Source of the DNA: an uncultured Acidobacteriota bacterium
Lineage (GTDB): Bacteria; Acidobacteriota; Terriglobia; Bryobacterales; Bryobacteraceae
Length of the DNA stretch: 64,000 bases
Reading direction: 5' to 3'
Assembly: GCA_963780655.1 (NCBI GenBank)
Contig: CAWACP010000007.1
Coordinates: forward strand, 247,270-311,269
Both the position numbers and the translations under genes were made by a program. The notes beneath the pieces were generated by a model. The model saw only the letters and a program-made list of their open reading frames with translations. It made no database searches and was not told the DNA's origin. Positions 5,034 to 40,149 of the stretch are shown here, in pieces; the first letter of the stretch is position 1, and each line of letters begins with the position of its first letter.

Positions 5034-5055
5034 TGCCGGCTGAAAGCCTGCTCTG

Positions 5056-7740
5056 TTACGTGGTTACCGGATCGGGGCTCTCGGGATTCAGGCCGAGTTC
5101 CGCGACGGCTTGCGCTGCCTTCACCTTGTCGAACACGCCATCGCTCGCCAGCGCCGATAATGCCGCCGAAGCGATCGCATTGGCCGAAATCTCGAAATGG
5201 TTCCGCAGGTATTCGCGGTTGTCGCTGCGTCCGAAGCCGTCGGTACCGAGCGAAGTCAGGCGGCCGGGCAGCCACGGCGCAAGCTGATCGGGCACCAGCT
5301 TCATATAGTCGGTGGCGGCCACGATCGGCCCGTCATGCCCGGCAAGCGCATCCTGGATGTACGGCTGACGCGGCGTCTCGGTCGGGTGCAGCCTGTTCCA
5401 GCGGTCCACTTCCAGCGCGTCGCGGCGGAGCTCGTTGTAGCTGGTGACGCTCCACACGTCGGCGCGCACCCCGTACTTCTCCGCCAGAATCTGCTGGGCC
5501 TGTAACGCCTCGTTCAGAATTGGACCGCTGCCGAAGAGTTGTACCTGAGCCGGTCCGCCTTCAGCGGCGCGGAAACGATAGATGCCCCGAAGCACGCCCT
5601 CGGCGGCGCCTTCCGCCATGGGCGGCTGTGCGTAGTTCTCGTTGTAGACCGTGATGTAGTAGAAGCGGTCCTCGTTGTTCTCGTACATGCGGCGGATGCC
5701 GTCGCGCACGATCACCGCAATCTCGTAGGCGTACGCCGGGTCGTAGCTGTGGCACGTGGGAACGGTGGAGGCCAGAACCTGGCTGTGCCCGTCCTGATGC
5801 TGCAGTCCCTCACCCGACAGCGTGGTGCGTCCGGCCGTTCCGCCCACCAGGAATCCTTTGCCGCGCGAGTCGGCAAACGCCCAGATCAGGTCGCCGATGC
5901 GCTGGAATCCGAACATCGAATAGTAGATGAAGAAAGGAATCATGGGCACGCCGTAGTTGGCGTACGACGTCCCGGCGGCCGTGAAGGAACACATGGAGCC
6001 GGCCTCGGTGATGCCCTCTTCCAGAATCTGGCCGTTCCGCGCTTCCTTGTAGTACAGGAAAATGTCGCTGTCCACCGGCTTGTAGAGCTGGCCCTTGGCC
6101 GCATAGATGCCGAACTGCCGGAACAGCGATTCCATGCCGAAGGTGCGCGCCTCATCGGGGATGATTGGCACGATGTACTTGCCGAGCGCCGAGTCCTTCA
6201 GCAGCATGGTGATGATGCGGACCACCGCCATGGTGCTCGAAACCTCGCGCCCCTGTGACCCGCCGTACTGCTCTTCGAAGAACTCCACTGGCGGCGCCTT
6301 GAGCTCGATCGGCTTCGGACTGCGCGCGGGCAGGCTGCCGCCGAGCGCTTCCCGGCGTTCCTTCATGTACTTCATTTCCGGACTGTCGTCCGGCGGCCGG
6401 TAGAAGGAAACCGTCAGGACGTTCTCCTCGGGCACGGGGATATCGAACCGCTGCCGCACGTAGCGCAGCTCGTCCTCATTCAGCTTCTTCTGCTGATGCG
6501 TGACGTTGCGGCCTTCGCCGGCTTCGCCCATGCCGTAGCCTTTGATGGTCTTCGCGAGGATCACCGTGGGCGAGCCCTTGTGAGCGATGGCCCGCTGGTA
6601 AGCGTTGAACACCTTCACCGGATCGTGGCCGCCGCGGCGCAGCGCGCCGATCTGCTCGTCGGACAAATGCTCCACCATGCGCGCCAGCTCGGGATACTTG
6701 CCGAAGAACTCGCGCCGGGTGTACGCGCCTCCTTTGGCCGCGTAGTTCTGGAACTCGCCGTCCACGCATTCTTCCATGCGCTTCATGAGCACGCCGCTGT
6801 AATCGGCGGCGAGCAGCGGATCCCAGTCGGCGCCCCAGATGACTTTGATCACGTACCAGCCCGCGCCGCGGAACGCCGCCTCCAGTTCCTGGATGATGCG
6901 GCCATTGCCGCGCACCGGACCGTCCAGCCGCTGGAGATTGCAGTTCACCACGAAGATCAGGTTGTCCAGAGATTCGCGCGAGGCCAGTGTGAGAGCGCCC
7001 AGCGTCTCCGGCTCATCGGTCTCGCCGTCGCCGAGGAACCCCCAGACGTGCCGCGGCGTGTGCGGCAGCATGCCGCGGTTTTCGAGATAGCGCATGAAGC
7101 GCGCCTGATAGATGGCGTTGATGGGACCGAGCCCCATCGAAACCGTGGGGAACTGCCAGAACGAGGGCAGCAGCCAGGGATGCGGATACGATGGCAGGCC
7201 AGGCTGGTCGCGCAATTCGTGGCGGAAGTTCTCGAGGTGCTTTTCCGACAGCCGGCCTTCCAGAAACGCCCGCGCGTACGGACCGGGCGACGAGTGGCCC
7301 TGGAAATAGACCAGGTCGCCGGGCTGGTCTCCATAGCTGCCGTGGAAGAAGTGGTTGTTGGCAACTTCGGTGAGCGTGGCGAGCGAAGCGTAACTGGAAA
7401 TGTGGCCGCCAATGCCGGGGTCGTACTTGTTCGCACGCACCACCATGGCCATGGCGTTCCAGCGAATCAGGCTCTTGATGCGCCGCTCCATCTCGCGGTC
7501 TCCCGGATAGGGCTCTTCGGCGTCGGCGGGGATCGTGTTGATATAAGGCGTGTTGACGCTGAGGGGAGCGGTTACGCCCCAGTTGGCCCCGCGTTCGAGC
7601 AACCGCTTCAGGAGGTACGAAGCGCGCTCAGGGCCTTCGTCCTCGACAATCTGTTCCAGCGCTTCCAGCCATTCGCCGGTCTCCTGGGGATTCGCATCTT
7701 CCAGGCTGTCATACGACGACGGGATATTGGTTTGCAGCAT
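5056..7740 (-). CDS. aceE: pyruvate dehydrogenase E1 component, homodimeric type
   Basis: 894 aa. N-terminal QETGEWLEALEQIV, GGHISSYAS, ThDP-binding GDGE...N region. Length matches AceE. Confidence 0.9.
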   Translation of the reverse strand: MLQTNIPSSYDSLEDANPQETGEWLEALEQIVEDEGPERASYLLKRLLERGANWGVTAPLSVNTPYINTIPADAEEPYPGDREMERRIKSLIRWNAMAMVVRANKYDPGIGGHISSYASLATLTEVANNHFFHGSYGDQPGDLVYFQGHSSPGPYARAFLEGRLSEKHLENFRHELRDQPGLPSYPHPWLLPSFWQFPTVSMGLGPINAIYQARFMRYLENRGMLPHTPRHVWGFLGDGETDEPETLGALTLASRESLDNLIFVVNCNLQRLDGPVRGNGRIIQELEAAFRGAGWYVIKVIWGADWDPLLAADYSGVLMKRMEECVDGEFQNYAAKGGAYTRREFFGKYPELARMVEHLSDEQIGALRRGGHDPVKVFNAYQRAIAHKGSPTVILAKTIKGYGMGEAGEGRNVTHQQKKLNEDELRYVRQRFDIPVPEENVLTVSFYRPPDDSPEMKYMKERREALGGSLPARSPKPIELKAPPVEFFEEQYGGSQGREVSSTMAVVRIITMLLKDSALGKYIVPIIPDEARTFGMESLFRQFGIYAAKGQLYKPVDSDIFLYYKEARNGQILEEGITEAGSMCSFTAAGTSYANYGVPMIPFFIYYSMFGFQRIGDLIWAFADSRGKGFLVGGTAGRTTLSGEGLQHQDGHSQVLASTVPTCHSYDPAYAYEIAVIVRDGIRRMYENNEDRFYYITVYNENYAQPPMAEGAAEGVLRGIYRFRAAEGGPAQVQLFGSGPILNEALQAQQILAEKYGVRADVWSVTSYNELRRDALEVDRWNRLHPTETPRQPYIQDALAGHDGPIVAATDYMKLVPDQLAPWLPGRLTSLGTDGFGRSDNREYLRNHFEISANAIASAALSALASDGVFDKVKAAQAVAELGLNPESPDPVTT

Positions 7741-7899
7741 CTTTCGAGGGTTCTCTCCACGACACTTCGCGCACGGCGGCAGCGGCGGCGGGGCCGCTTC
7801 CTGTGCGCTTCAGCAATACGGCCGGCTCCGAGTGAGAGAATCGGCCGTTAAAGTCCAGGATAGCATCCACGCCCCCTGCCCAGCTAACGCTCTGCCCGG

Positions 7900-8875
7900 C
7901 TATGCGGTTGCGAGTTGTTGCCGCACAAGGCTGCCGAACCCGGTTGGGGCGAAACGGGTGATCAGGAACGGGTCGTTAAACCAGCTCCACGCGGTCCATC
8001 CGATCCCGAGTTGCCCCATGTAAGCGAGAAGTTTGCCGACGAAGTCCAGACCTGCAGGCGTGTCTTCCTCACCGAACTCACCTGCGAAGACCGGAACCGT
8101 TTGCGCGAGATCGCCAAAAGCTTCCGCCCAGTTCGTTCCCTTGTTGGAATACACGTGCGATGAGTAAACGACGTTCGCAAGATCCATGGGCATTCCCCGC
8201 AGATCGTACGCCCAGTTGATGCCGGGAATGAAAACGAGCGAGTCCGGGTTCTCCGCGCGGATGGCGCTCGTCAGCTTTTGTGCCCAGGGCTGCCACTCCT
8301 GCATGGTCACCGAGCGCTGATCCGGCCGGGTACGTTGTCCCATCCTCTTTGTTGAGCGGATACGGATCGTCGCTGAGACGATCGTGCGGTTCGGTGAAGA
8401 TGTCGTACAGAACCGCGGGTTCATCTTTGTATCTGCGGGCCAGCAGCGTCCACAGATCGATCGATGCGGCGTTGGGCAGAGGAGCAACGAAGTTCCGGTT
8501 CCCTCCATAAATGCGGTCGGCATCGAGCCACTGGAGATCGAGCAGGGTGTACGAACCGAACATCGAGTTCCAGGCGATCACCTGATCGAGTGCGCTCTGA
8601 TACTCCTCACCGGAGCGGCCGCCCCGGCCATGCAACACAAAGTCCTGATTGAACGGAACGCGAACGATGTTGCAATGCCAGCCCTGAACGATACTCTGAA
8701 TCTCCGATCGGCAGATTGCCGCGCCCGACAAGAAGCCCTGTTCATCCGGATCGGAGTATTCAAGGCCCGAGCGATTCACGCCGCGGAGGATGACCGTTGC
8801 GCCGGAGGCAGCGTTGACAATGCGATTGCCGGCAGTCGCCAGCGGCGGGAGGCCATTCGACAGATTCCCATTCAT
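7900..8875 (-). pseudogene. glycoside hydrolase family 5 (cellulase-like), split by a frameshift
   Basis: Track ORF 8078..8875 carries the N-terminal half (RGVNRSG..., CNIVRVPF, YDIFTEPH acid/base region). Track ORF 7900..8523 carries the C-terminal half in another frame (VFAGEFG nucleophile region, GWTAWSW). The frames switch near 8315-8345. Confidence 0.7.
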
Positions 8876-24675: not shown

Positions 24676-26625
24676 GTGTGGCAGCCCTCCACGGGCCGCC
24701 GCTGCGCCATTCGAACCATGATTCAGCTTGCTTCTGCCGGGAAACGTTTTGGCCCTAAACTGTTGTTCGAGAACCTCAACTGGCTGGTCACCACCAGGGA
24801 ACGGGCGGGCCTCGTGGGCGCCAACGGCACCGGAAAATCGACGCTTCTCAAAATGCTCGCCGGCTTCGAAGAGCCGGATTACGGCAGCATCAACCGGATG
24901 AAAGGCATCACCGCCGGCTACCTGCCTCAGGAAGGCCTGACCCTGTCCGGGCGCACGGTATTCGCCGAGTGCATGACCGTGTTCGCCGCCCTGCGCGAGG
25001 TGGAGGAGGAGATGGAGACGCTCACCCGGAAGATGGGCGAGCTGGACCCGGCCTCCGACGATTATCGAGCCGTCTCAGACCGGTACCACACGCTCGAGAA
25101 CGAGTTCGCCGCCCAGGACGGCTACACCGTGGAGGCGCAGGTGGGGACCGTGCTGGCCGGTCTCGGATTCCCCCGGGAAGACTGGGCGCGCCGCACCGAG
25201 GAGTTCTCCGGCGGCTGGCAGATGCGCATCGCGCTGGCGAAGCTGCTCCTCCAGAAGCCGGACCTGTTGCTGCTCGACGAGCCCACCAACCATCTCGATC
25301 TGGAAGCGCGCAACTGGCTGGAAGGCTATCTCACGTCCTATCCCAACGCCTTCGTCCTGATCTCGCACGACCGGTACTTTCTGGATGTGACCGTAAACCG
25401 CATCGTGGAGATCTGGAATAAGGCGGCGCACTTCTATCCCGGTAATTATGAGCAGTATCTGAAGCTGCGGGAGGAGCGGCGGGCACAGTTGGAGGCGTCC
25501 TACCGCAACCAGCAGGAACGCATCCAGCAGCTCGACGCGTTCATCAGCCGCTTCCGCTATCAGGCATCGAAGGCGAAGCAGGTGCAGAGCCGGATCAAGG
25601 AGCTGGACAAGATAGAGCGCATCGAGATTCCACCCGACGAGAAGACCATCCACTTCTCATTCCCGCAGCCGAAGCCGAGCGGGCGCATTGTCGCGGAGTT
25701 TCAGAACGTCGCGAAGAGCTACGGCGAGAAGTTCGTGTTCGGCGGCGTCGATTTCATCATCGAGCGCGGGGACCGCATCGCGCTGGTGGGCGTGAACGGC
25801 GCAGGGAAATCCACTCTCATCAAGCTGCTGGTTGGCGCGGAGCCTCTGACCTCCGGCACATACCGGCTGGGGCACAACGCCGAGCCGGATTACTTCGCGC
25901 AGGACCAATACAAGGAGCTGGACCCCGATGCGCGCCTGCTTGACGACATCGCGTCGGTGAACGGGCGCAGCACGCAGACCGAACTGCGCAGCCTGCTGGG
26001 CTGTTTCCTGTTCAGCGAGGACGACGTATTCAAGCGCATCGGCGTGCTCTCGGGCGGCGAGCGAAACCGCTATGCGCTGGCCCGAATGCTGCTGCGGCCA
26101 TCGAACTTCCTGCTGCTGGACGAGCCCACGAATCACCTGGACATGCGCGCCAAGGACGTGCTGCTGGACGCGCTGGCGGAGTTCACCGGCACGGTGGTGT
26201 TCGTTTCCCACGACCGGTATTTCATCGACAAGCTGGCCACGCGCGTGTTCGAGGTGGGTGATGGCGTGGTCCGCGTGTATCCGGGCAACTACGAGGACTA
26301 CTTGTGGCGCAAGGAGGGCGGAGGCCCGGCGGCGCTCGAATCGGCGCTGGCAACGCATCCGAACGGCGCGCGCGAGAGCGGCGCGAAGAGTAAGCGTCTG
26401 AATCCGATGAAGCTTCAGCAGATGCAGAATCGCGCCGGCGAGCTCGAGCAGAAGGCGGCGCGGCTGGAAGCGGAGATTGCCGGGTTTGAGGACGAGCTGA
26501 GCCGGTTCGTGAGCGTGGAGGAGTCGCAGCGCGTCTCGAAGCTGCTGGAAGAGCGCCGCGCGGAGCTGACCGCGTTGACGGCCGAGTGGGAAACGGTGAC
26601 CGAGGCGCTGGAAGCGGCGGGGTAA
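24676..26625 (+). CDS. ABC-F family ATPase (two ABC domains, no TM domain)
   Basis: GANGTGKST and GVNGAGKST Walker A motifs. LSGGWQMR and LSGGERNR signatures. Charged C-terminal coiled-coil. SD ggaaggagag lies 7 nt before GTG 24676; alternative ATG at 24718 (MIQLASAGKRFG). Confidence 0.9.
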   Translation: MWQPSTGRRCAIRTMIQLASAGKRFGPKLLFENLNWLVTTRERAGLVGANGTGKSTLLKMLAGFEEPDYGSINRMKGITAGYLPQEGLTLSGRTVFAECMTVFAALREVEEEMETLTRKMGELDPASDDYRAVSDRYHTLENEFAAQDGYTVEAQVGTVLAGLGFPREDWARRTEEFSGGWQMRIALAKLLLQKPDLLLLDEPTNHLDLEARNWLEGYLTSYPNAFVLISHDRYFLDVTVNRIVEIWNKAAHFYPGNYEQYLKLREERRAQLEASYRNQQERIQQLDAFISRFRYQASKAKQVQSRIKELDKIERIEIPPDEKTIHFSFPQPKPSGRIVAEFQNVAKSYGEKFVFGGVDFIIERGDRIALVGVNGAGKSTLIKLLVGAEPLTSGTYRLGHNAEPDYFAQDQYKELDPDARLLDDIASVNGRSTQTELRSLLGCFLFSEDDVFKRIGVLSGGERNRYALARMLLRPSNFLLLDEPTNHLDMRAKDVLLDALAEFTGTVVFVSHDRYFIDKLATRVFEVGDGVVRVYPGNYEDYLWRKEGGGPAALESALATHPNGARESGAKSKRLNPMKLQQMQNRAGELEQKAARLEAEIAGFEDELSRFVSVEESQRVSKLLEERRAELTALTAEWETVTEALEAAG

Positions 26626-26989
26626 CGTGCAGGCTGAAAGCCCAATGCAGAGGGTTTTTAGCTTAGCGTTGCGGCGGGAAAGAGCTGGGGGTGGGCGAAG
26701 AAGTTGAGCGCCGCAACGGTGAGCTAAAAACCGATTGAACTGAACCGCCGGGCAGTGCCGGGAGCTATGGGGTTGGAATGCGCGGGGCGCCTCTTGCGTG
26801 AGTGTGGAAGCAGGACAGTCGCGGTGATCGGGCATTCGGGTCGGGGACGAGCGGGCGGTCGATGGGTCCCAAAACTGCCGCTGGGTCGGAGAATGTTCGC
26901 GGGATTGGTGAACGCAGGCGCGGCAGAGACACTGCGGCGCGGGCCCGGGGGGGATGAAGGGGCCGAGTTTGCGCCGATGAGCACTGGTT

Positions 26990-28177
26990 TCATGAGGTGT
27001 CCGCAGCTGCGGGTTGTTTTCCCATAGCGGAGAGGATCTCGATCACCCGCATGGCGCCGGAGCGGCAGATGGGGCACTGGCGCAGGGAAACGCCGGTGAG
27101 TTGCTCGCAGCGGTCCCGGTAATCGGGAGCAACCTGCGCCGGCCTGGGCGCCGGGGGCATGTTCAGCAGACGACGGCACAAAGCGAGTTTTTCTTCGCGG
27201 TGGCGGTTGCCGAGGAAACCGTAGTAGCGGATGCGCTGGAAACGATTCGGCAGGACGTGGAGCAGAAAGCGGCGGATGAACTCGGCGGCGGCGAGCGAGA
27301 GGGTTTTCTGCTGACCGTCGCGGTAGTCTTTCCAGAGAAAGCTTACCCGGCCGTTTTCCATGTCGCGCAGGCGGTGGTTGGCGATGGCCACGCGATGGGT
27401 GTAGCGTCCCACATAATCGAGCACTTGCTGCGGTCCGGCAAAGGGCGGTTTGGCATAGACCACCCATTCGGTCTGGCGTGTGCGGGCCAGACAGCGCAGG
27501 AAGTCGGTGCGGTTGCGGAGCGCTTGGAGACCGGAGAAGAAACTCAGCGTGCCGGCGGCGAAAGCTTTTTCGAGGGCCTCGAGAAAGCGGCGGCGAAACA
27601 GGCGGCTGAGCACGCGGACGGGAAGGAAGAAGCGGGGGCGGCAGGAGATCCAGCGCTGGCCATCGGGGGAGAGTCCGCCGCCCGGCACGAGGCAGTGCAG
27701 ATGAGGGTGATGGAGCAGATTCTGACCCCAGGTGTGTAACACGCAGAAGAAGCCGATCTCGGCTCCGCGGTGTTGGGGATCGGCGGCGATGGTGCGCAGG
27801 GTTTCGGCGGCGGCGCGAAAGAGAATGCCGTACACCGCTTCCTTGTTCTGGAAGGCGATTTCGGCGAGCGGTTCGGGCACGGTGAACACGACATGGAAGC
27901 AGGGGCAGTCGAGGAGTTCGGCCTGCCGTTTTTCGATCCACTCGGCGCGTTCCAGCGACTGGCATTTGGGGCAGTGGCGGTTGCGGCAGGAGTTGTAGGA
28001 TACACGCTGGTGGCCGCATTGGTCGCACTGCTCGCGATGTCCGCCCAGCGCCGCGGTACGGCACACTTCGATGGCGGTCATGACGCGCCGTTGCGCGGTC
28101 GACAACGAGGCGCTCTGACGATAGGTTTCTCCGTAGCGGCGGAAAATGTCCGCCACTTCCAGCGGGGGGCGGGGCAC
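26990..28177 (-). CDS. IS91 family transposase (HUH Y2 rolling-circle type)
   Basis: 395 aa. N-terminal Zn-binding region (CDQCGH...CRNRHCPKCQ). HTWGQNLLHHPHLHCLVPGGG (HUH region). YVGRYTHRVAIANHRL (Y2 motif region). Confidence 0.9.
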   Translation of the reverse strand: MPRPPLEVADIFRRYGETYRQSASLSTAQRRVMTAIEVCRTAALGGHREQCDQCGHQRVSYNSCRNRHCPKCQSLERAEWIEKRQAELLDCPCFHVVFTVPEPLAEIAFQNKEAVYGILFRAAAETLRTIAADPQHRGAEIGFFCVLHTWGQNLLHHPHLHCLVPGGGLSPDGQRWISCRPRFFLPVRVLSRLFRRRFLEALEKAFAAGTLSFFSGLQALRNRTDFLRCLARTRQTEWVVYAKPPFAGPQQVLDYVGRYTHRVAIANHRLRDMENGRVSFLWKDYRDGQQKTLSLAAAEFIRRFLLHVLPNRFQRIRYYGFLGNRHREEKLALCRRLLNMPPAPRPAQVAPDYRDRCEQLTGVSLRQCPICRSGAMRVIEILSAMGKQPAAADTS

Positions 28178-28184
28178 GGATACT

Positions 28185-29042
28185 TCAGCGCGACGGTTGC
28201 GCAGGTTCGGATCCGGGCAGCAGATCGAGCGGGCTGACGGCCGCGCAGACCGTAGTGGCGGCCATCTTCAGGTAGCGGGCGGTGGTGTTCAGGCTGCGCT
28301 GGCCGAGCAGCAACTGGATAATGCGGAGATCGGTTCCCGCTTCCAGCAGATGAGTGGCGAAGGCGTGGCGCAGACTATGCGGAGTGACGTGCTTGTCGAT
28401 GCCCGCGCGCTGCCGTGCCTGCCGGCAGGCCTTCTGGATGGCTCCCTGCGAGATGGGCTCGTCGGGGCGGGCTCCCGGGAACAGCCAGCGCCGCGAGCGC
28501 GTCTGCTTCCACCAGGCGCGCAACTCCGGGAGCAGCCGCTCGGACAGCATGACATAGCGGTCCTTTTGTCCTTTGCCCTGCTCGACGCGAATGGTCATGC
28601 GCTGGCTGTCGATATCGCTGACGCGCAGGTGAGTGAGTTCGGAAAGACGAAGTCCGGTGGCGTAAGCGGTGCTCAGAACCGCGTGCTGGCCGGCGTCGGT
28701 GAGGGCTGCGAGTAAACGGGCGACTTCCTCGCGACTGAGGATCGCCGGCAATTTTTGTGGGGCTTTGGGCAAAGGAATCCGGTCGATACTCCAGGGCCGC
28801 TGCAGAGTGACGCGGTAGAGAAAGCGAAGCGCCGAGGTGGCCACGATAAGGCTGGCGGCCGAGAGGCCTTTCTGCGTCAGGTACAGTTGATAGGTGCGGA
28901 TCTGTTCGGGTCCCAGCAGTTCGGGCGACTTGCCGAAATAACGCGCGAACGCGGCGACCTGCTGCTGGTAGGACGATTGAGTTTTGGGCGCCAGATGGCG
29001 CACCTGCATGTCTTCGATCATGCGTTGACGAAGTGGATTCAT
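28185..29042 (-). CDS. tyrosine recombinase/integrase (phage integrase family) associated with the IS91 transposase
   Basis: Start at ATG 29042 (MNPLRQRMIEDMQVRHLAPKTQSSY, SAM-like N-domain). C-terminal catalytic residues: GLRLSE, HSLRHAFATHLLEAG, LLGQRSLNTTARY. Confidence 0.85.
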   Translation of the reverse strand: MNPLRQRMIEDMQVRHLAPKTQSSYQQQVAAFARYFGKSPELLGPEQIRTYQLYLTQKGLSAASLIVATSALRFLYRVTLQRPWSIDRIPLPKAPQKLPAILSREEVARLLAALTDAGQHAVLSTAYATGLRLSELTHLRVSDIDSQRMTIRVEQGKGQKDRYVMLSERLLPELRAWWKQTRSRRWLFPGARPDEPISQGAIQKACRQARQRAGIDKHVTPHSLRHAFATHLLEAGTDLRIIQLLLGQRSLNTTARYLKMAATTVCAAVSPLDLLPGSEPAQPSR

Positions 29043-29179
29043 GGGGCAACTCCCTTCTGGAATGGTTCGGTGCTGCGAACACCAACACCATGGTTCTCCA
29101 GATGGGAGCCCCTGCGAATTCCGGCGGAACGTCAACTATGGAAAGTTCGGGGATGAGCTACCGCGAAGCGGTTTAGTTC

Positions 29180-29394: not shown

Positions 29395-30990
29395 TCAGCC
29401 TGCGGTTTGGCATTTTCCCGCGCGAAGCCTTGCCTCGATCTCCCGATGCCCCATCTTCTTCGCCCAGGCGAGCGGCGTCGCCCAGGGCACGGCGTCCGGC
29501 TCGTTTGCCGGCGCGCCGCGCGATCGGAACATCTCAACCAGCTCCGAGCGGCCCCAGCGGCACGCCCAGCCGAGCGGCGTCGATTGCAGCAGATGATCGC
29601 GCAGGTCGAGCCGTGCGCCGCTGTCGAGCAGCATCGACGCGAAGCGCGTGCGGTCGGCTTCGTGGACGCCGTCGCGCGCGGCCGTGAAGTGCAGCGGCGT
29701 CTGACCGAATCGCTTCGTCACGTTCGCGTCAATGCCGTGCTCGAGTAACAGCGCCAGCGAGCGGAAGAGTCCCTCGTGCGCCGGATCGCCATCGGCGCGG
29801 CGCATTGGCTGAATCAGGATCCAGTGCCAGCGCGGGTCATCCCGCGGCCACCGCAGACGCGGCAGCGCCATCGCGAGGATGGAAGCGCAGCCGCTGCCTG
29901 CCGCGGACCAGGCCAGCTCCTGCGCCAGGTCCTCGCCCGCGTCCGCCGCCAGCATTCGCGCGGCCTCAGCCGTATCGTGAAACTCCGCCGCCATATAGGG
30001 CTGCATCTTCGCGCCGCGCGCTGTCAGCAGGCGCTTCATCGGCTCGTCATTGCGCCTGTACGCATTCAGCAATGGCCAGCCGGACGCGTAGACGTTGCCG
30101 TTCGGGTCGGCGCCGCGATCGAGCAGCAACTCGGCAATCTCCAGCCTTCCGCCCTGTGCCGCGCACCACAGCGGTCCGCCCCAGCTCTCGGTTGGCTCTT
30201 CCAGCTCCTGCAACATGGTGCGCTCATCCGGATCGGCGCCCAGATCGAGCAACAACCTGACGATGTCGATATGCCCGTTGTTCACCGCCACGCTGAGCAG
30301 CCCGCCTCGCCTCCATGTGATGTCGCGCAGCACGCCCGGATTGCGGCTCACCAGCTCACGGACGCGCGCCGCGTCGCCCTGGGCGATGGCATCTCGTACG
30401 CCTGACTCTCGGCCGGCGTCCAGCGGTTCGCGCGCGGGCGCTTCGTCCTGTCCGGGTGCGCCGGTCCGCTTCGCCTTCTCCTGCTCTATGATGTCAACGA
30501 TGTCTCCGTAGCCCCTGTCCCGCGCGATGACGAACGCGGTAGTCGCATCGCGGTGCGGGAAGACGCCCTGATCCGGGTCGGCCCCCGCCTGCATGAGCAG
30601 CCGGACCATGGCGGCATCGCGAGCGAGCACTGCCCGATGCAGCGCGCGCTGTTCGTTGTCGTGCGCGGTATCCATGTGCACAAGCTCGGGACGGCGTCTG
30701 AGCATTGCGCGAACCGCGGCAGTGTCGCCCCCTTCAACCACGGCCATGAACCGGCCCACGGTGACGCCGTCGATGAAGGCTTTCAGCTTTGGCCAACTGG
30801 AGAAGCCGTATGCGCGAGCGATGGCGAGCTGAGCATCGCTGAGCTGGAACTGTTGCGGAACAGCGCCCGGATACCAGAGACGGACCTGTTGCGCCACGCC
30901 TGCGTCGCCGGCGTGAAACGCCTTCAGCAGATCCTTTGCCTGTTTGCGAAGTTGCGCGAGATCGGGGTTTTCCGGGAGAGAGCGTGTCAT
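29395..30990 (-). CDS. ankyrin repeat protein
   Basis: 531 aa. Multiple ANK-like units (ALHRAVLARDAAMVRLLMQAGADPD, LLSVAVNNGHIDIVRLLLDLGADPD, PLWCAAQGGRLEIAELLLDRGADPN, TPLHFTAARDG...). Confidence 0.85.
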   Translation of the reverse strand: MTRSLPENPDLAQLRKQAKDLLKAFHAGDAGVAQQVRLWYPGAVPQQFQLSDAQLAIARAYGFSSWPKLKAFIDGVTVGRFMAVVEGGDTAAVRAMLRRRPELVHMDTAHDNEQRALHRAVLARDAAMVRLLMQAGADPDQGVFPHRDATTAFVIARDRGYGDIVDIIEQEKAKRTGAPGQDEAPAREPLDAGRESGVRDAIAQGDAARVRELVSRNPGVLRDITWRRGGLLSVAVNNGHIDIVRLLLDLGADPDERTMLQELEEPTESWGGPLWCAAQGGRLEIAELLLDRGADPNGNVYASGWPLLNAYRRNDEPMKRLLTARGAKMQPYMAAEFHDTAEAARMLAADAGEDLAQELAWSAAGSGCASILAMALPRLRWPRDDPRWHWILIQPMRRADGDPAHEGLFRSLALLLEHGIDANVTKRFGQTPLHFTAARDGVHEADRTRFASMLLDSGARLDLRDHLLQSTPLGWACRWGRSELVEMFRSRGAPANEPDAVPWATPLAWAKKMGHREIEARLRAGKCQTAG

Positions 30991-31142
30991 GATGACCTCC
31001 TTCGGCTTGTCGCCGTTCCTGCCCGTGTCCGCTCATTCGGGCGAAAGGAAGATCACCACGAAGGTGTCTGCTAAACGATGATGTTCGGTGTGGGCTCAGC
31101 CCTTTCCGCGGACCCGGAGGCGCCACGACGCGCTCGACGTTA

Positions 31143-31170
31143 TTGTCGCATGATTGTCGCATGAGTGTCG
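31143..31170 (+). promoter_or_regulatory. 2.5 tandem copies of an 11-bp unit (ttgtcgcatga) in a divergent promoter region
   Basis: ttgtcgcatga at 31143-31153 and 31154-31164, then gtgtcg. Lies between the ankyrin start (30990) and the sortase-substrate start (31409). Confidence 0.4.
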
Positions 31171-31408
31171 GCAGGCCGACGCCAGCGTGACTCGGCGTGT
31201 AACCTGTCCTCACCGCTTTCTGTAATTCTTGCCGTCGCCGAAGGCTCTGAAAGCGCTCAGACGTCGCAGACTCATCGACTTGCCGCTTTGGCGCCTGGGC
31301 TGCACCATACCCTGCGCGGTGGCCCGCCTGGGCTTGCCCAACGTTACCCACCGGCCGTTGCTGTGGCAACGCGGTGACAACGACAGAAACGACTGGAGGA
31401 GTAGTGAT

Positions 31409-32113
31409 ATGACGAGTTTGAAAGCTCTTGCCATTGCAGCCGGCGTCGGTGTGTTCGGATCTCTCATGGCGCCAAATGTCATGGCCGACGAATGGAACAA
31501 AAAAACCATTCTTACTGTCAACGAGGCGATTCAGGTGCCTGGCGCTACACTGCAGCCCGGCAAGTACGTGATGAAGTTGATGAATTCGCCCTCGAACCGG
31601 CACATTGTCCAGATCTACAAAGGCGACGAGAGTAACATCGTGACAACCATTCTGGCGCTGCCGAACTATCGTCTGCAGCCAACCGGAAAGACCGAGTTCA
31701 CGTTCTGGGAAACGCCTCCCGGACAGCCGAAGGCCCTGCGCGCCTGGTTCTACCCCGGTGACAACTTCGGTCAGGAATTCGCTTACCCCAAGAACGCCGC
31801 GGCATCTATCGCCACCTATGCCAAGACCAGCGTTCCTACTACCTACGCCGAGAACGAGTCCCAGTTGACCACGGCTCAGGTGGGCAGCGTGAACGAACAG
31901 GGTCAGGAACAGCCGCTGGGCGAGCAGTATACCCAGCAGACAGAGGTAGCGCAGAACACCACGCCTGCGCCGGCTCCTGAGGCTGCGCCGGCCACTGAAC
32001 CGGCCCCGGCTCCGGCCCTACCGAAGACGGCCAGCCCGTATCCATTGATCGCGCTTGCCGGTCTGTTTTCATTGGGTCTGTTTGCGACGTTGCGCCTGAT
32101 CCGCGAGTCGTAA
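31409..32113 (+). CDS. secreted protein with C-terminal LPKTAS sortase-type sorting signal
   Basis: ATG 31409 preceded by ggagga. Signal peptide MTSLKALAIAAGVGVFGSLMAPNVMA. C-terminus: PAPAPEAAPATEPAPAPA-LPKTAS-PYPLIALAGLFSLGLFATL-RLIRES. Confidence 0.7.
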   Translation: MTSLKALAIAAGVGVFGSLMAPNVMADEWNKKTILTVNEAIQVPGATLQPGKYVMKLMNSPSNRHIVQIYKGDESNIVTTILALPNYRLQPTGKTEFTFWETPPGQPKALRAWFYPGDNFGQEFAYPKNAAASIATYAKTSVPTTYAENESQLTTAQVGSVNEQGQEQPLGEQYTQQTEVAQNTTPAPAPEAAPATEPAPAPALPKTASPYPLIALAGLFSLGLFATLRLIRES

Positions 32114-32216
32114 CGGTTCGCCGGCAGAACGCTCCGTTCATATGAGCTGGCGCCGCCAGGGAGTGGCGCCAGCTTTTCTTGTCTTGTTCAACTGAGCCGG
32201 GCGATTTCAGCCGGCT

Positions 32217-33221
32217 GTGTGGTGGGCCATGTTGCCGCTGGTAATACTGCTTGCTTACGCCTTCGTCGCCCAGGCGCCTGTGCCGGCCCCTCCGCCCGGG
32301 ACGGCCTCATCTTCCGCGCAGGGCGATCAGTCGGAATTTACAATTAAGAGCACCGTAAACCGGGTCCTGCTCGACGTCGCGGTCCGGAACCCCGCGGGGG
32401 GCTTCGTTTCAGGCCTGAAGAAGGAAAATTTCCACGTCTTCGATAATGGCAAAGAGCAGCCCATCCTCGATTTCGGCGCCGGCGACATACCGGTTACCGT
32501 CGGCATCGTAGTGGACGAAAGCCTGAGTATGGCTCCCAAGCGGCCTGAGGTCCTGACGGCGGCGCTCACCTTTGCAAAAGAGAGCAATCCGCAGGACGAG
32601 ATGTTCGTCGTCAATTTCAACGAGAGACCGCGGCACGGCCTCCCGGACGACGTCCTGTTCACCGACAATCTGCAAATGTTGCGCCAGGCGCTGCTCAAGG
32701 GCAAGCCGGAGGGACGCACGGCGCTTTACGACGCGGTGGTTGTGGCGCTCAGGCAACTGGACATGGGACGCGAAGCCAAGAAGACGCTGGTGCTCATCAG
32801 CGATGGCGGCGATAATGTCAGCACGCACAAGTTTCACGATGTAATGAAGCTGGTGGAGGAAACCACGGCCACCATCTACACGGTCGGAGTCTTCGATCCC
32901 GACGATCCCGACAAGAACCCGGGCATTCTGAACCGGCTGGCGCAGGTGAGCGGCGGCATTGCTTATTATCCGCAAAACCTCCCGGAAATCGTGCCGATCT
33001 GCAGACAAATCGCAAAAGATATCCGCAACCGCTACACGCTGAGCTATCAGCCGCCCGAGAGCAATCGGGAGGAGCTTCGACACGTGAAGGTGGAAGTCAG
33101 CGCGCCGGACCTGGGCAGGCTGATCGCACGGACCCGCACGTCTTATTTGTACCGGCCAAACGGAACACAGGATGTCGATGCATCGCTGGCCCCCGGCGGC
33201 AAAAGCCGGAAGAAACGATGA
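32217..33221 (+). CDS. VWFA-related (TIGR03436-like) domain protein
   Basis: 334 aa. N-terminal signal/anchor. FTIKSTVNRVLLDVAVRNPAGGFVSGLKKENFHVFDNGKEQ. MIDAS-like DESLS. LISDGGDN. Confidence 0.7.
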   Translation: MWWAMLPLVILLAYAFVAQAPVPAPPPGTASSSAQGDQSEFTIKSTVNRVLLDVAVRNPAGGFVSGLKKENFHVFDNGKEQPILDFGAGDIPVTVGIVVDESLSMAPKRPEVLTAALTFAKESNPQDEMFVVNFNERPRHGLPDDVLFTDNLQMLRQALLKGKPEGRTALYDAVVVALRQLDMGREAKKTLVLISDGGDNVSTHKFHDVMKLVEETTATIYTVGVFDPDDPDKNPGILNRLAQVSGGIAYYPQNLPEIVPICRQIAKDIRNRYTLSYQPPESNREELRHVKVEVSAPDLGRLIARTRTSYLYRPNGTQDVDASLAPGGKSRKKR

Positions 33222-33964
33222 AAGCGCGAATTCAACCGGACCGCAGGCTGGGCTGGCGTCTGGCGGAGTATGTGCTTCTCTTCGCCGGACTGGTTCTGCT
33301 GGACGCGTTCATCTGGGTGAAGGCAAGCGCGGTGGTATATCAGTCCTGGGAGAACTGGTCTTTCGATCGCGAGGTGAAAGGCGAACCCGTTTCAGTGCGG
33401 GAGTTTCTGCGCGATGAGCTGCGCTTCAGTCCTCGCACCCTGCCGCCGCAAAGCGCCCCCATGGCCAGAAGGGCCCCTGAGCCGCGCATGGTCATCCCGC
33501 GGGATGAAGTGGTGGGCCGTCTGGAGATCCCGAGGCTGGGATTGCGCGCGATTGTTCGGGAAGGCTCCGATGAGGACACGCTGCGACGCGCGGTGGGACA
33601 TCTGCCGTCTTCTCCGGTTCCCGGGCAGCCGGGAAATGTGGCCATCGCGGGGCATCGGGACACGTTCTTCCGGCCGCTGCAGGGCATACGCGTGAACGAT
33701 CGGATCACGTTCGAGACGCTGCGAGGCCGCTACGAATATGCGGTGCAATCGGTGAAGGTGGTGCAGCCGGACGATGTCGGCGTGCTGCGCGCGTCCACAC
33801 AGCCTGAGCTGACCATGATTACCTGCTACCCGTTCCACTACATCGGCTCGGCTCCGAAGCGGTTTGTCGTGGAGGCCCGCCAGATTGGGGCCGCGCCGGA
33901 GACGGAGCAGGCTGCGGTGAGAGCCGATGCCAGCCGGTCGGTGCGAACGCTACCAGGACTGTAG
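33218..33964 (+). CDS. sortase family transpeptidase (membrane-anchored)
   Basis: 248 aa. TM segment YVLLFAGLVLLDAFIWV. His motif NVAIAGHRD, Cys motif LTMITCYPF, Arg in KRFVVEAR. ATGA overlap with the VWFA gene. Confidence 0.8.
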   Translation: MKARIQPDRRLGWRLAEYVLLFAGLVLLDAFIWVKASAVVYQSWENWSFDREVKGEPVSVREFLRDELRFSPRTLPPQSAPMARRAPEPRMVIPRDEVVGRLEIPRLGLRAIVREGSDEDTLRRAVGHLPSSPVPGQPGNVAIAGHRDTFFRPLQGIRVNDRITFETLRGRYEYAVQSVKVVQPDDVGVLRASTQPELTMITCYPFHYIGSAPKRFVVEARQIGAAPETEQAAVRADASRSVRTLPGL

Positions 33965-33979
33965 AACAATACTCGCCTG

Positions 33980-34067
33980 GTGGGGCGGTCCCCCGGACCG
34001 CGCGGGACGCCCTCGTCCCGCTTTGCAGGCCGAAGGCCTGCTTTGCAGGCCGAAGGCCTGCTCCACA
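33980..34067. repeat. composite repeat patch: about 40-bp MITE-core-like fragment plus two tandem REP copies
   Basis: gtggggcggtcccccggaccgcgcgggac... resembles the MITE interior. ctttgcaggccgaaggcctg is duplicated in tandem (34021-34040, 34041-34060), then ctccaca. Confidence 0.7.
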
Positions 34068-34092
34068 CAGACTCCAGTGGATTGTATCGAGC

Positions 34093-34746
34093 TCACATTT
34101 CGGCGCGGGCCTTTGCGACGGCCGTGAGAAACTGCCGGGCTCGGTCCGTAAACACACCGAAATTACCGGCCCGCAGATTCGCGCTGTCCACCAGTTCCGC
34201 GCCAACTCCGACGGCGCAGGCGCCCGCCCTCAGGAACTCGCCGGTTGTATCGAGATTGACGCCGCCGGTGGGCACCAGCTCGATCTGCGGCAGGGGCGCT
34301 TTTAACGCCTTAATATATTTCGCGCCTCCCAGCGCGCCGCACGGGAAAACCTTAACGGCGTCCGCTCCGGCTTCCCACGCCGTGAGGATCTCGGTGGGCG
34401 TGAGCGCGCCCGGCATGATCACCTTCGAATAGCGCCGCGCCATCTCGATGGTTGCGAGCTTCAGTGCAGGCGTCACCAGAAACTGCGCGCCCGCCAGGAT
34501 GCACGCCCGCGCGGTCTCCGGATCGAGCACCGTGCCGGCCCCCAGAATCATGCGATCGCCGAATCGGTCCGCCAGCTTCTCGAGCGCGCCGATCGCTCCC
34601 GGAACCGTCATCGTGATTTCCGCCACCAGAATGCCGCCGTCGTATAACGCCTCAATCGCGCCGATCGCCGCGTCGGCGCTTTCGGAACGGACGATGGGAA
34701 CGATGCCAATGCCGGCGATCTCGGATAGCGTATCTCGCGTATTCAT
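34093..34746 (-). CDS. eda: 2-dehydro-3-deoxyphosphogluconate / 4-hydroxy-2-oxoglutarate aldolase
   Basis: 217 aa. VPIVR, EITMT, LGAGTVLDPETA, VKVFPCGALGG, and the Lys-containing VKVFP motif. Confidence 0.85.
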   Translation of the reverse strand: MNTRDTLSEIAGIGIVPIVRSESADAAIGAIEALYDGGILVAEITMTVPGAIGALEKLADRFGDRMILGAGTVLDPETARACILAGAQFLVTPALKLATIEMARRYSKVIMPGALTPTEILTAWEAGADAVKVFPCGALGGAKYIKALKAPLPQIELVPTGGVNLDTTGEFLRAGACAVGVGAELVDSANLRAGNFGVFTDRARQFLTAVAKARAEM

Positions 34747-37322: not shown

Positions 37323-37907
37323 TCAGCCGCGCCTCCGCCTGCCCTGCGAACGCTCATCCCGGGCCTTCTTTGCAGCGTTCGTCTCCCGTATAATCCGTTC
37401 GAGTTCTTCCAGACGGCGGCGGAGTTCATCGACGGTGGCCTGGCTCTCAGCTGCCGGAGCCCCCTCGGCGGCAGGCGGCGCTTGCTGCGGCGCAGCACCA
37501 GCCGGCCGGGCCCGGCCTGCCGCGCCGGTCATCGACTGCATGAAATCGAAAGGCGAAAGAGCGGGCGTGAACGCGCGATATGCGTTCTGATACATGTCGT
37601 ACATCGTCTGCATGTAGCGCACGAACCCCTCGTGGCTGGCGCGTCCCGAAGCGACCACCATCTGGCGAAGCATGTCGAGCGGGAAGCCTGAATCCGGCGC
37701 TTTCGCGTGCTCCACGATAATCTGCGTCAGCACGATGCGCGTAAGGTCTTCTCCGGTGGCGTTGTCGATCACCTGAATCTCCACTCCTTCCCGAACCATG
37801 GCCGCAATGTCTTCCAGATTGACGTAGCGGCTGTTCGCAGTGTCATACAGGCGTCTGTTTTCGTATTTCCGGATCAAGACCTTTTTTGATTCCACGAGCG
37901 CGCGCAC
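37323..37907 (-). CDS. phaR: polyhydroxyalkanoate synthesis repressor PhaR
   Basis: 194 aa. IRKYENRRLYDTANSRYVNLEDIAAMVREG...LTQIIVE is the PhaR N-terminal DNA-binding signature. Confidence 0.9.
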   Translation of the reverse strand: MRALVESKKVLIRKYENRRLYDTANSRYVNLEDIAAMVREGVEIQVIDNATGEDLTRIVLTQIIVEHAKAPDSGFPLDMLRQMVVASGRASHEGFVRYMQTMYDMYQNAYRAFTPALSPFDFMQSMTGAAGRARPAGAAPQQAPPAAEGAPAAESQATVDELRRRLEELERIIRETNAAKKARDERSQGRRRRG

Positions 37908-37991: not shown

Positions 37992-38603
37992 ATGAACGTC
38001 AACCCAAAGCCGGGTAAAGAAACGGACGCTGCAGCCGAGAAGGTTGAAGCGCCGGAGATTTCCATTGATCACGTCGCGGATCTGTTCCACAAGGGCGTGC
38101 AGAGAATGGCCACGCTGCAGAAGACCACCCTCGACATCGTGAATCAGCAGGCCGCCGACATGAATACTATCACGAAACAGGCCTTTCGCGGGGTTCCTGC
38201 TGCGTCCGGCCTGTTCCTGTTCGACCTCGGACTGCAGGCCATGAACAAGTGGGTCGAGGCCCAGAAGAGCATGATCGACGTATACGTCGAGCAGAGCGCC
38301 GGCGCCGTCGAGCTCGTAAAGCACCGGTCGGAAAACCTTCGCGATGGCGCTGAAGGTTTCAAAGAGTTCGTTCAGGGAACTGCCGACCGCACCGCCGCCG
38401 TTCATCGCATCGCGCTCGATTTTGCTGCGACGCAAAACAAGAACGTTGCCGAAACGGTGAAGAAGCAGACCGGCATCGCCGGTACTCCCATTGCCGAGGC
38501 CACCGAGGCGGCCCAGCGCAATGTCGCATCGGTGATCGAGGCGCAGAAGGCAATGGTGGAAGCGGCCGCGAAGCAGGCCAGGACCGCCACCGCCAAAGCC
38601 TGA
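37992..38603 (+). CDS. phasin-like PHA granule-associated protein (tentative)
   Basis: 203 aa, Ala/Gln/Lys-rich helical protein. Position between phaR and phaEC. Confidence 0.5.
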   Translation: MNVNPKPGKETDAAAEKVEAPEISIDHVADLFHKGVQRMATLQKTTLDIVNQQAADMNTITKQAFRGVPAASGLFLFDLGLQAMNKWVEAQKSMIDVYVEQSAGAVELVKHRSENLRDGAEGFKEFVQGTADRTAAVHRIALDFAATQNKNVAETVKKQTGIAGTPIAEATEAAQRNVASVIEAQKAMVEAAAKQARTATAKA

Positions 38604-38704: not shown

Positions 38705-39082
38705 ATGAGCGATTCGAATCCGGAGAACAAGAACTTCGATCCGTTCGATGCCTGGCGCGGGATGCGCGATGCGAGTCTCGACGCCTGGTCGAAGACCATG
38801 ATTGAGGCCGTGAACACGGAAGCCTACGCAAAGAGCAGCGGCGCGATGCTCGATGCGTGGCTGACCGCGTCCATCCCCTTCCGCGAAATGCTGGAGAAGA
38901 CCATGGTGCAGGCGCTGCAACAGCTCAGCATGCCCACGCGCGCCGACATCATCAGCCTCGCCGAGCGGTTGACGAACATCGAGATGAAGCTGGACGACAT
39001 GGATGCGCGGCTCGATGGCATGGAGACCAGGGGTTCCCGCGCGAAACCCGCCGCGCCCCCGAAGGAGGCGAACGGCCAATGA
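38705..39082 (+). CDS. phaE: short PhaE-like PHA synthase subunit
   Basis: 125 aa from ATG 38705. C-terminal MPTRADIISLAERLTNIEMKLDDMDARLDGME resembles the PhaE C-terminal helix. Stop overlaps the phaC ATG (ATGA). Confidence 0.55.
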   Translation: MSDSNPENKNFDPFDAWRGMRDASLDAWSKTMIEAVNTEAYAKSSGAMLDAWLTASIPFREMLEKTMVQALQQLSMPTRADIISLAERLTNIEMKLDDMDARLDGMETRGSRAKPAAPPKEANGQ

Positions 39083-40149
39083 TCACTCTCGGGAACGCCG
39101 AAGACCAAATGCGCCACGCAGAGCAAAACCTGCGGCGTCTCGCGAAAGTGATGACCACGCGCGCAGCAATCGCGCAGACGCCGAAGCAGCTCATCTGGAC
39201 TCTCAATAAAGCAAAGCTCTACCGGTACATCCCGGTTCTTCCGCCGGAACAGCGCCATCCCGTACCCCTTCTGCTGGTGTTCGCGCTGATGAACCGGCCT
39301 TCCATCCTCGATCTGCGGCCCGGACACAGCTTCGTGGAATTCATGGTCGGCCGCGGATACGACGTCTGGCTGCTCGACTGGGGCGCGCCGGGCATCGAGG
39401 ACAAGGATCTGAAATTCGACGATTACACGCTCGACTACCTGCCGCGCGCGATTCGCAAGCTCAAAGCGGTTTCCGGAAGCGCCGAGTTCAGCATGCTCGG
39501 CTGGTGCATTGGCGCAATCCTCACCACTATCTATGCGGCGCTGCGGCCCGACGACGGCCTGCGCAATCTCCTGCTGCTCACAGCGCCGCTCGACTTCTCC
39601 GACCGCAAAGGCATCACCTTCTCGCGCTGGACCGATGAACGCTACTTCGACGTCGACAAGGTTCTGGCCGTCTTCGGCAACATGCCGGCCGGGATGATCG
39701 AATACGGCGCCAAGGCATTAAAGCCGGTGGAGAATTACATCGGCAACTACCTCCGGCTCTGGGACAATCTCGATGACCCGAAGGTGGTGGAATCGTGGCA
39801 CGCCATGAACACCTGGGTGACCGACAACATTCCCATGACCGGCGGGGCATTCCGGCAATTGGTTGTCGACCTTTACAGAAACAACCGGCTGATGGAGGGA
39901 ACGCTCATCATGCGCGGCGAGCGGGTGGATGTCAGCCGCATCCGCGCGAACCTGATGACCGTGATCGCCGGCGCCGATCACATCACCCCGCCGTGCCAGT
40001 CGGAACCCATCATGGACCAGGTAAGCAGCAAGGATAAGGAAGTCTTCCACATTCCGGGCGGCCACATCGGAATTATGGCGGGCAGCGGCGCCCGCAGGCT
40101 AACCTGGCCGCATATCGACGCGTGGCTGGGCGCGCGATCCGGCCGTTAA
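39079..40149 (+). CDS. phaC: class III-type poly(R)-hydroxyalkanoate synthase PhaC
   Basis: 356 aa (class III/IV size). Lipase-box with Cys GWCIG. LLLVFALMNRPSILDL. HIPGGHIG. Confidence 0.85.
   Translation: MITLGNAEDQMRHAEQNLRRLAKVMTTRAAIAQTPKQLIWTLNKAKLYRYIPVLPPEQRHPVPLLLVFALMNRPSILDLRPGHSFVEFMVGRGYDVWLLDWGAPGIEDKDLKFDDYTLDYLPRAIRKLKAVSGSAEFSMLGWCIGAILTTIYAALRPDDGLRNLLLLTAPLDFSDRKGITFSRWTDERYFDVDKVLAVFGNMPAGMIEYGAKALKPVENYIGNYLRLWDNLDDPKVVESWHAMNTWVTDNIPMTGGAFRQLVVDLYRNNRLMEGTLIMRGERVDVSRIRANLMTVIAGADHITPPCQSEPIMDQVSSKDKEVFHIPGGHIGIMAGSGARRLTWPHIDAWLGARSGR

Follow-up and report, generated by a model that had tools for sequence, protein, structure and literature searches.

Sortases are textbook enzymes of Gram-positive bacteria, and we know of no sortase of a Gram-negative bacterium whose acceptor has been identified. 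According to a recent review, the sortases of Gram-negative bacteria are "not well characterized", class D sortases recognize signals of the form LPXTA, and SrtC of Bacillus anthracis attaches its LPNTA substrates to diaminopimelate cross-bridges through the amino group of the latter (PMC8225981). An LPxTATN motif has been described for carbohydrases of Bacillus cellulosilyticus (PMC3617157). In proteobacteria, the class GN sortase (TIGR03784) is encoded beside its target, an LPXTG protein with VIT and VWA domains (Haft, PMC3237569). Here, we describe a sortase cassette in a stretch of 64,000 nucleotides (nt) from an Acidobacteriota bacterium of the Bryobacteraceae (contig CAWACP010000007.1, 247,270-311,269 of the forward strand). 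This whole stretch is called the window, and all coordinates refer to it unless a related locus is named. The cassette consists of three co-directional open reading frames (ORFs) on the plus strand, located where the preliminary description of this DNA had placed them. g1 (31409-32113, stop included), defined by its ORF and translation, encodes a sortase substrate precursor of 234 amino acids (aa). g2 (32217-33221), recognized by hidden Markov model (HMM) matches, encodes an exported VWA protein of 334 aa that belongs to the TIGR03436 family. g3 (33218-33964), recognized by HMM matches and a match in the PDB, encodes a membrane-anchored, class-D-like sortase of 248 aa, and its start overlaps the end of g2 by ATGA. 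A sortase, a single tail-tagged substrate, and a VWA protein thus form a self-contained cassette of Acidobacteriota, in the order Bryobacterales and its relatives. The nearest homologues of all three proteins are found in metagenome-assembled genomes of Bryobacteraceae, Bryobacterales, and Terriglobia, all of them Acidobacteriota. In the literature searched, we found no description of a sortase cassette in Acidobacteria; the sole mention was a COG count for Solibacter usitatus.

The g1 product ends in a sorting signal. The preliminary description had credited it with a Sec-type signal and a tripartite C-terminus, and both can be read directly from the sequence. The C-terminus runs ...TTPAPAPEAAPATEPAPAPA-LPKTAS-PYPLIALAGLFSLGLFATL-RLIRES, and the sorting signal (32018-32110, plus strand) is made up of LPKTAS (32018-32035), a hydrophobic segment of 19 residues (32036-32092), and the basic tail RLIRES (32093-32110). 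This LPXTG-type succession of motif, hydrophobic span, and basic tail is kept across homologues. Of 120 close homologues, 118 carry LP[KHR]T[AGS]S, mostly with Pro next; LPxTA is found in 98 of the 120, and the remainder have TG or TS. Among the best 150 g1 representatives at 50% identity, 112 end in [LM]PxT[AGS] tails. Models of this signal include PF00746 and TIGR01167. g1 itself has no match to PF00746 at E ≤ 1 and no NCBIfam match at E ≤ 0.01, while one of its relatives (P0263) passes PF00746 with 21.1 bits (cutoff 20).

Tails of this type are confined to g1 homologues in the DNA that was covered, namely the 64-kb window and about 870 kb of flanking DNA from related loci. A six-frame scan of the window found no other convincing LPxT[AGS] motif followed by a hydrophobic and a basic segment, in agreement with the earlier claim that no other protein in the window is tailed; two further pattern matches were out-of-frame noise. 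In the flanking DNA (84 loci, approximately 3,850 six-frame ORF segments of at least 100 aa), where unlinked LPKTAS-type tails were sought, 83 tailed ORFs were found. Eighty-two of them are g1 homologues, and one is a frameshifted g1 C-terminus.

The three genes are kept together. A scan of one genome per GTDB species gave at least 593 loci with a g1 relative. The 80 best loci were all from Acidobacteriota; the best loci were searched with the three proteins of the window, and 73 loci had enough downstream DNA to be evaluated. The order and orientation g1-g2-g3 is the same in 66 of the 73, and the sortase gene adjoins g1 in 70. Four further loci have an adjacent sortase gene: it is divergent in L053, L068, and L081, and the VWA gene is missing in L073. 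L033 has g1 and g2 only. Two g1 genes are orphans (L023 and L046), and both genomes also hold a full cassette. Since the flanks vary between lineages, the three genes travel as a unit, which bears out the proposed co-conservation in related genomes. The conserved order and the confinement of the tails to g1 homologues support the pairing of enzyme and substrate, and the retention of tail and gene order (118/120 homologues and 66/73 loci) takes the arrangement beyond chance. The notion of one sortase with one substrate holds for each locus. Some genomes have two or three cassettes plus orphan g1 copies; where g1 is present in multiple copies, each usually has its own sortase gene. A fourth conserved cassette gene was also sought by clustering of flanking ORFs, and the candidates were rejected as lineage synteny (dUTPase/dCTP deaminase, ThyX, and a sigma-54 activator) or antisense shadow ORFs.

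Some loci show other arrangements of the same genes. In L038 (6001-11589), two cassettes are convergent. In L053, L068, and L081 (approximately 4200-8700), the sortase gene is divergent from g1, with the VWA gene also divergent in L053 and L081, and a second, more distant VWA gene is located 3' of g1 in all three.

g3 is a sortase by several lines of evidence. It scores 112.4 bits against the Pfam Sortase model PF04203 (cutoff 26.6) and 82.4 bits against TIGR01076 (cutoff 39.35), and it has an N-terminal hydrophobic anchor. Its best match in the PDB is SrtC of B. anthracis (2LN7; E = 9e-23). His146 (33653-33655), Cys203 (33824-33826), and Arg215 (33860-33862) align with the catalytic residues of solved sortases such as 2LN7. 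The three residues are invariant in 30 database homologues and are conserved at 95% or more across 73 aligned sequences, which are the sequence of the window and 72 cassette copies. The earlier assignment of a membrane-anchored sortase with a His/Cys/Arg triad, overlapping g2 by ATGA, is therefore upheld. The class of the enzyme is less straightforward. Class D models score best for all 30 homologues, one of which is named "class D sortase" by NCBI. g3 itself reaches 145.2 bits with the class D model NF058671 (cutoff 140) and 136.4 bits with NF033746 (cutoff 165). Among the other classes, it scores 93.6 bits with TIGR03784 (cutoff 158.25), which rules out class GN, and 89 bits with class E. 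NF058671 describes the LPxTATN-specific SrtD; g1 has LPKTASP, and TATN is found in none of its 120 homologues. Because the g1 relatives carry LP[KHR]T[AGS]S, the marginal pass with NF058671 does not place g3 in the LPxTATN subgroup. On its sequence, g3 is most aptly placed in an acidobacterial clade of its own among class-D-like sortases.

The substrate carries an export signal and a folded domain. The N-terminus of g1 is MTSLKALAIAAGVGVFGSLMAPNVMA followed by DEW, and a GGAGG sequence is located 8 nt 5' of the ATG. The start at ATG 31409 is preferred over an upstream TTG (31229), because homologues align from the Met of ATG 31409 and because the TTG start would put the promoter-like element described below inside the ORF. 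Residues 1-26 (31409-31486, plus strand) are a predicted signal peptide ending in ...NVMA before DEW, judged by eye from a basic n-region, a hydrophobic core, and an A-x-A-type site. D27-x-W29 at the predicted mature N-terminus is invariant in close homologues. Both g1 and g2 have N-terminal signal sequences, and neither has a lipobox. Residues 27-175 (31487-31933, plus strand) form a conserved beta-rich domain of unknown fold, which includes the near-invariant WETPPGQPKALRAWFYPGDNFGQEFAYPK. The preliminary description took the substrate to be domain-less. This was not borne out, as AlphaFold2 modelled the strongly conserved domain of about 150 aa, taken alone with 119 sequences, at a predicted local distance difference test (pLDDT) score of 90.4 and a predicted template modelling score of 0.86. 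One of five models of full-length g1 was confident (mean pLDDT 70.5) and also had no PDB match. A Foldseek search of the PDB with the domain model gave no structural match (best E = 1.0, template modelling score ≤ 0.3), and a profile search of PDB sequences with the domain returned nothing at E ≤ 10. g1 has no Pfam or NCBIfam match above threshold. A sub-threshold Pfam match to DUF2911 (E = 0.077, 37 residues) was dropped. Between the domain and the sorting signal, residues 176-203 (31934-32017, plus strand) form a linker, read directly from the sequence, that is low in complexity (Q/E/T) and then rich in Pro and Ala. The linker is modelled as disordered and differs in length among homologues.

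The g1 domain belongs to a large family. More than 5,500 homologues are found in databases, and the family comprises 3,116 clusters at 50% identity (1,880 at E ≤ 1e-10). Across 69 loci, the mean identity to the window is 65.5% for the g1 domain; it falls to 58.3% in the VWA core and to 58.1% in the catalytic domain of the sortase. In 57 of these loci, the g1 domain ranks first in conservation among the three proteins. Such conservation would suit a constrained structural or binding role. The domain also occurs in other settings. In one representative at 50% identity (P0192), it lacks the sorting signal and is fused to two BON domains. In four others (P0174, P0189, P0256, and P0257), a helical C-terminal domain of about 150 aa takes the place of the tail. 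Tandem domains are seen with a tail in P0182 and without it in P0220. These tail-less, BON-fused, and tandem relatives are natural experiments on what the domain needs to work.

g2 is a VWA protein. It matches TIGR03436, an acidobacterial VWFA paralogous family, over its full length (positions 2-321 of the 324 in the model) with 169.7 bits (cutoff 81.25), and Pfam VWA models match as well. The metal ion-dependent adhesion site (MIDAS) motif DESLS is at residues 100-104 (32514-32528), followed by the Thr of GRT at 168 and the Asp of SDGGDN at 196. D-x-S-x-S, GRTALYDA, and SDGGDN are conserved at 95% or more (80% or more for the Tyr) in 70 aligned sequences, which are that of the window and 69 cassette copies. 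From this conservation of the MIDAS residues, a metal-dependent ligand site is probably maintained. No PDB relative of g2 was detected by sequence, and its C-terminus has no sorting signal. The preliminary description called g2 an anchored VWFA protein with a DESLS MIDAS. The domain and the motif stand, and the sequence is compatible with either an anchored or a cleaved, soluble form: the N-terminus has a hydrophobic segment, with a Pro after the AQA site and an alternative cleavage site between AYA and F. The start codon is uncertain between GTG 32217 and ATG 32229. TIGR03436 is a family without an assigned function, and the subgroup represented by g2 is now tied to a sortase and its substrate, which gives it a context.

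Transcription of g1 may be under sigma-54 control. A sigma-54-type -24/-12 promoter-like element, TGGCGC-CTGGG-CTGCA (31288-31303, plus strand), is located 120 nt 5' of the g1 ATG. Elements with GG and GC 10 nt apart and at least 8 of 11 matches to the consensus nTTTGGCAnnnnAnCTGC were searched for up to 250 nt upstream of g1. They were found in 63 of 82 loci compared with 12 of 164 control stretches, and conservation extends to flanking positions on which the search set no condition. The GG/GC core is the same in the window and in its closest relative, L085, despite changed neighbouring bases. In about 39 loci, the cassette has a sigma-54 activator gene as its neighbour, and in L004 (8512-12708), rpoN is found about 3 kb downstream of the cassette. 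Taken together, these findings suggest that g1 is transcribed with sigma-54. Between g1 and g2, an intrinsic-terminator-like hairpin (32144-32185, plus strand) with a 13-base-pair stem containing 9 G-C pairs is followed by TTCTTGTCTT. Terminator-like hairpins are present 3' of g1 in 15 of 83 loci compared with 4 of 471 control windows inside g2 and g3. The hairpin appears to be an enriched, lineage-limited feature, and it would favour an excess of g1 over g2 and g3. The sigma-54-type promoter before g1 in most loci and the terminator-like hairpin after g1 in the window are newly reported here.

Other features of the control region were also noted. In many relatives (e.g., L005, 8430-9740), the gene for a sigma-54-dependent activator (Sigma54_activat and HTH_8) is convergent to the sortase gene. 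The last 70 nt or so of the g1 leader (31340-31405) are identical in the window and L085, the two close sequences compared, and the sequence just upstream has diverged; this part of the leader contains a small hairpin, CGTTGC-TGTG-GCAACG. No Rfam family was found in 30900-34100 at E ≤ 1. Approximately 100-150 nt upstream of the sigma-54-like element, at 31141-31182, there is a 13-nt tandem duplication, ATTGTCGCATG ATTGTCGCATG, which is absent in L085, and an imperfect palindrome, GTGTCGGC-AG-GCCGACGC. The equivalent site of L085 has a perfect palindrome of different sequence, GTGTCGAC-AT-GTCGACAC. A palindrome at this place could be an activator site. A shared activator-binding palindrome upstream of the promoter element was looked for across 59 loci, and none was common to them.

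We hold with modest confidence that the cassette is a sigma-54-controlled, dedicated sortase system that attaches g1 to peptidoglycan in the periplasm, with the VWA protein as a binding partner. In this mechanism, g1 would be transcribed from the sigma-54-type promoter, and in the lineage of the window, the hairpin after g1 would probably hold g2 and g3 below the level of g1. g1 would be exported by Sec, and the hydrophobic segment and basic tail at its C-terminus would hold it in the inner membrane. g3, anchored at its N-terminus and with its catalytic domain in the periplasm, would cut LPKTAS between Thr and Ala and form a thioester on Cys203. The thioester would then be resolved by a periplasmic amine, most likely that of meso-diaminopimelate, which has a free amino group in lipid II and peptidoglycan. 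As a result, a new-fold domain of 150 aa would be tethered to the wall via the flexible Pro/Ala linker, and g2, as a secreted VWA protein with a MIDAS, might bind this domain or link it with some other part of the envelope. The peptidoglycan of diderms is of the diaminopimelate type, and BON domains are periplasmic modules. Attachment to peptidoglycan is favoured because the closest characterised enzyme uses the amine that this peptidoglycan offers. The periplasmic location is supported by the signal sequences of g1 and g2, which lack a lipobox, and by the paralogue in which the g1 domain is fused to two BON domains.

Several observations weigh against this proposal. g3 is below the curated NCBI cutoff for class D (136 versus 165 bits), and its marginal pass with NF058671 goes with the LPxTATN motif, which g1 lacks. 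In L073, g1 and the sortase gene are present without a VWA gene, and the g1 genes of L023 and L046 are orphans. No sigma-54 activator was found in the 64-kb window, and the fifth position of the promoter element in the window is G, not A. Terminator-like hairpins are limited to 15 of the 83 loci. Finally, the acceptor is argued solely by analogy with the nearest characterised sortase, a monoderm enzyme whose catalytic domain shares about 35-40% identity with that of g3.

It is also conceivable, although we consider it unlikely, that the sortase ligates the Thr of g1 to a Lys of another g1, giving a pilus-like fibre, or to a Lys of the VWA protein, giving a covalent g1-VWA complex. The tip adhesins of the sortase-built pili of Gram-positive bacteria often have VWA domains, and here the operon includes a gene for a VWA protein. 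g1 has an ...EFAYPK(N) segment that is near-invariant and resembles the YPKN pilin motif. In addition, g1 looks abundant because a terminator-like hairpin follows its gene, and tandem-domain members exist in its family. The Lys of the segment is present in 280 of 303 tail-bearing family members; however, it is absent in the other 23 and occurs almost as often in members without a tail (26 of 37). It does not clearly track with the sorting signal, which weakens the idea of a pilin motif. Furthermore, g3 scores only 67.3 bits with the class C (pilus) model NF033745 (cutoff 160), while class D models fit it best, and the confident model of g1 matches no Ig/Cna-type pilin fold, although such folds are abundant in the PDB. 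The lack of a sorting signal on g2 and the lack of an outer-membrane export component linked to the cassette also speak against ligation. A separate question is whether the final structure, whatever its form, would be novel for diderms. It could be a sortase-made peptidoglycan link, acting with its VWA partner to tether or sense another layer of the envelope, or a periplasmic or surface fibre that uses the YPK lysine, and we regard the two together as an unlikely prospect. In the form of a peptidoglycan link, the new-fold protein and the MIDAS-bearing VWA protein might be seen, by analogy, as a regulated, "reverse-orientation" analogue of Braun's lipoprotein.

The attachment of g1 by a dedicated enzyme also has to be weighed against the possibilities that g3 is not dedicated or that it does not attach. 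In a housekeeping role, g3 would act on numerous LPxT[AGS]-tailed proteins throughout the genome, and g1 would merely be its neighbour. S. usitatus, which is reported to have six COG-level sortase genes (PMC3174227), would fit this view, and the orphan g1 paralogues without an adjacent sortase gene (L023 and L046) mean that action in trans occurs. Yet each of these two genomes also holds a full cassette, genomes with several g1 genes duplicate the entire cassette, and the sortase gene stays adjacent to g1 in 70 of 73 loci, in species with different flanks. With no tail other than that of g1 in the window or the related flanks, we find a housekeeping role very unlikely. An improbable scenario is that g3 is a releasing endopeptidase, with water resolving the thioester and freeing a soluble g1 into the periplasm, or that g1 is joined to an amine outside peptidoglycan, such as phosphatidylethanolamine, which would yield a lipid-anchored protein like those of rhombosortase-type systems. 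Diderm membranes are rich in amine-bearing lipids. Tail-less g1-domain paralogues, soluble or BON-fused in the periplasm, indicate that the domain can work without wall attachment. On the other hand, the characterised sortases known to us, in every class, are transpeptidases, and a dedicated membrane enzyme just for removing an anchor would be less economical than release by signal peptidase. Moreover, the nearest characterised sortase uses diaminopimelate (PMC8225981), and diderm peptidoglycan offers it.

In the window, the cassette lies between an ankyrin-repeat gene (29395-30990, minus strand) and a KDPG aldolase gene (34093-34746, minus strand), with an S41 peptidase gene after the latter. 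L085 has the same flanks. In more distant relatives, the cassette is found between thyX/dUTPase-type genes and the sigma-54 activator gene or beside tRNA synthetase genes. A search of the window for second copies gave no further g1 or sortase homologue, and the sole VWA-like match was sub-threshold (17.9 bits). At 26990-29135 (minus strand), 2.3 kb upstream of the cassette, genes for an IS91-family transposase (Y2_Tnp, 226 bits; Zn_Tnp_IS91) and then a tyrosine recombinase (Phage_integrase, 140 bits) are present, and a GC-skew jump at 26001-28000 (0.217) coincides with this stretch. It looks like a recent insertion, because the gene list of L085 has no such genes upstream of the ankyrin gene. 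A gene for a PhaR-type regulator of polyhydroxybutyrate (PHB) accumulation is located at 37323-37907 (minus strand; PHB_acc_N, 98 bits). The adjoining ORFs at 37992-38603 and 38857-40149 (plus strand) were judged by eye to be phasin-like and polyhydroxyalkanoate synthase-like.

The cassette is common in Bryobacterales and their relatives, a major group of soil and peat. For experiments, it is convenient in having a single enzyme, a single small substrate whose motif is defined, a single VWA partner, and what appears to be a sigma-54 switch. The acceptor of the threonine would reveal whether diderms use sortases for the covalent attachment of proteins to peptidoglycan. Knowing it would likewise assign a function, for the first time, to an extensive domain family that has no name and to some of the expanded TIGR03436 VWA family. 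If a novel structure, link or fibre, were indeed built, this would be the first assigned function of a sortase in a diderm phylum.

Among the known systems, the class D system of Bacillota is the closest to the enzyme. SrtC of B. anthracis, with its substrates BasH and BasI, is the best solved match of g3, and the His, Cys, and Arg residues of the two align. An LPxTA-type motif is shared with g1, and SrtC, as is proposed for g3, serves very few substrates. The SrtC acceptor, diaminopimelate (PMC8225981), is offered by diderm peptidoglycan too. Unlike SrtC, g3 remains below the class D cutoff, and its host is a diderm Acidobacterium, whereas the host of SrtC is a sporulating monoderm. g1 is an unrelated domain of unknown fold, and the VWA gene stands between the substrate and sortase genes in 66 of 73 loci. 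Control differs as well: the SrtC system is under sporulation control, and the g1 cassette has a sigma-54-type promoter instead.

The preliminary description was reminded of the proteobacterial dedicated sortase system. The shared logic holds: in both cases, the host is diderm, one sortase is encoded beside one target, and VWA is involved, and the motif has T-[AS] rather than T-G (as quoted there for class GN). The kinship does not hold, since g3 is far below the TIGR03784 cutoff (93.6 versus 158.25 bits) and scores best with class D models. Furthermore, the VWA module here is a separate polypeptide, as the preliminary description stated: g2 bears it and has no sorting signal, while the tailed g1 has no VWA or VIT match. 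Class GN is therefore an analogy of logic and not a relative, and the resemblance is likely to be convergent or very distant. The pili of Gram-positive bacteria, with a class C sortase, a YPKN pilin, and a VWA tip adhesin, are also similar in that the operon encodes a sortase, a small tailed protein with a YPK-like segment, and a VWA protein. They differ in the low class C score of g3 (67 bits), the lack of a pilin-type fold, the VWA protein without a sorting signal, and the Lys that is not invariant. In addition, the cassette belongs to a host with an outer membrane and has no linked export route. Compared with all of these, the genomic evidence points to a distinct form of dedicated sortase system in a diderm, in which the sortase belongs to a clade of its own, the substrate has an unknown fold, a VWA protein is the partner, and control appears to lie with sigma-54.

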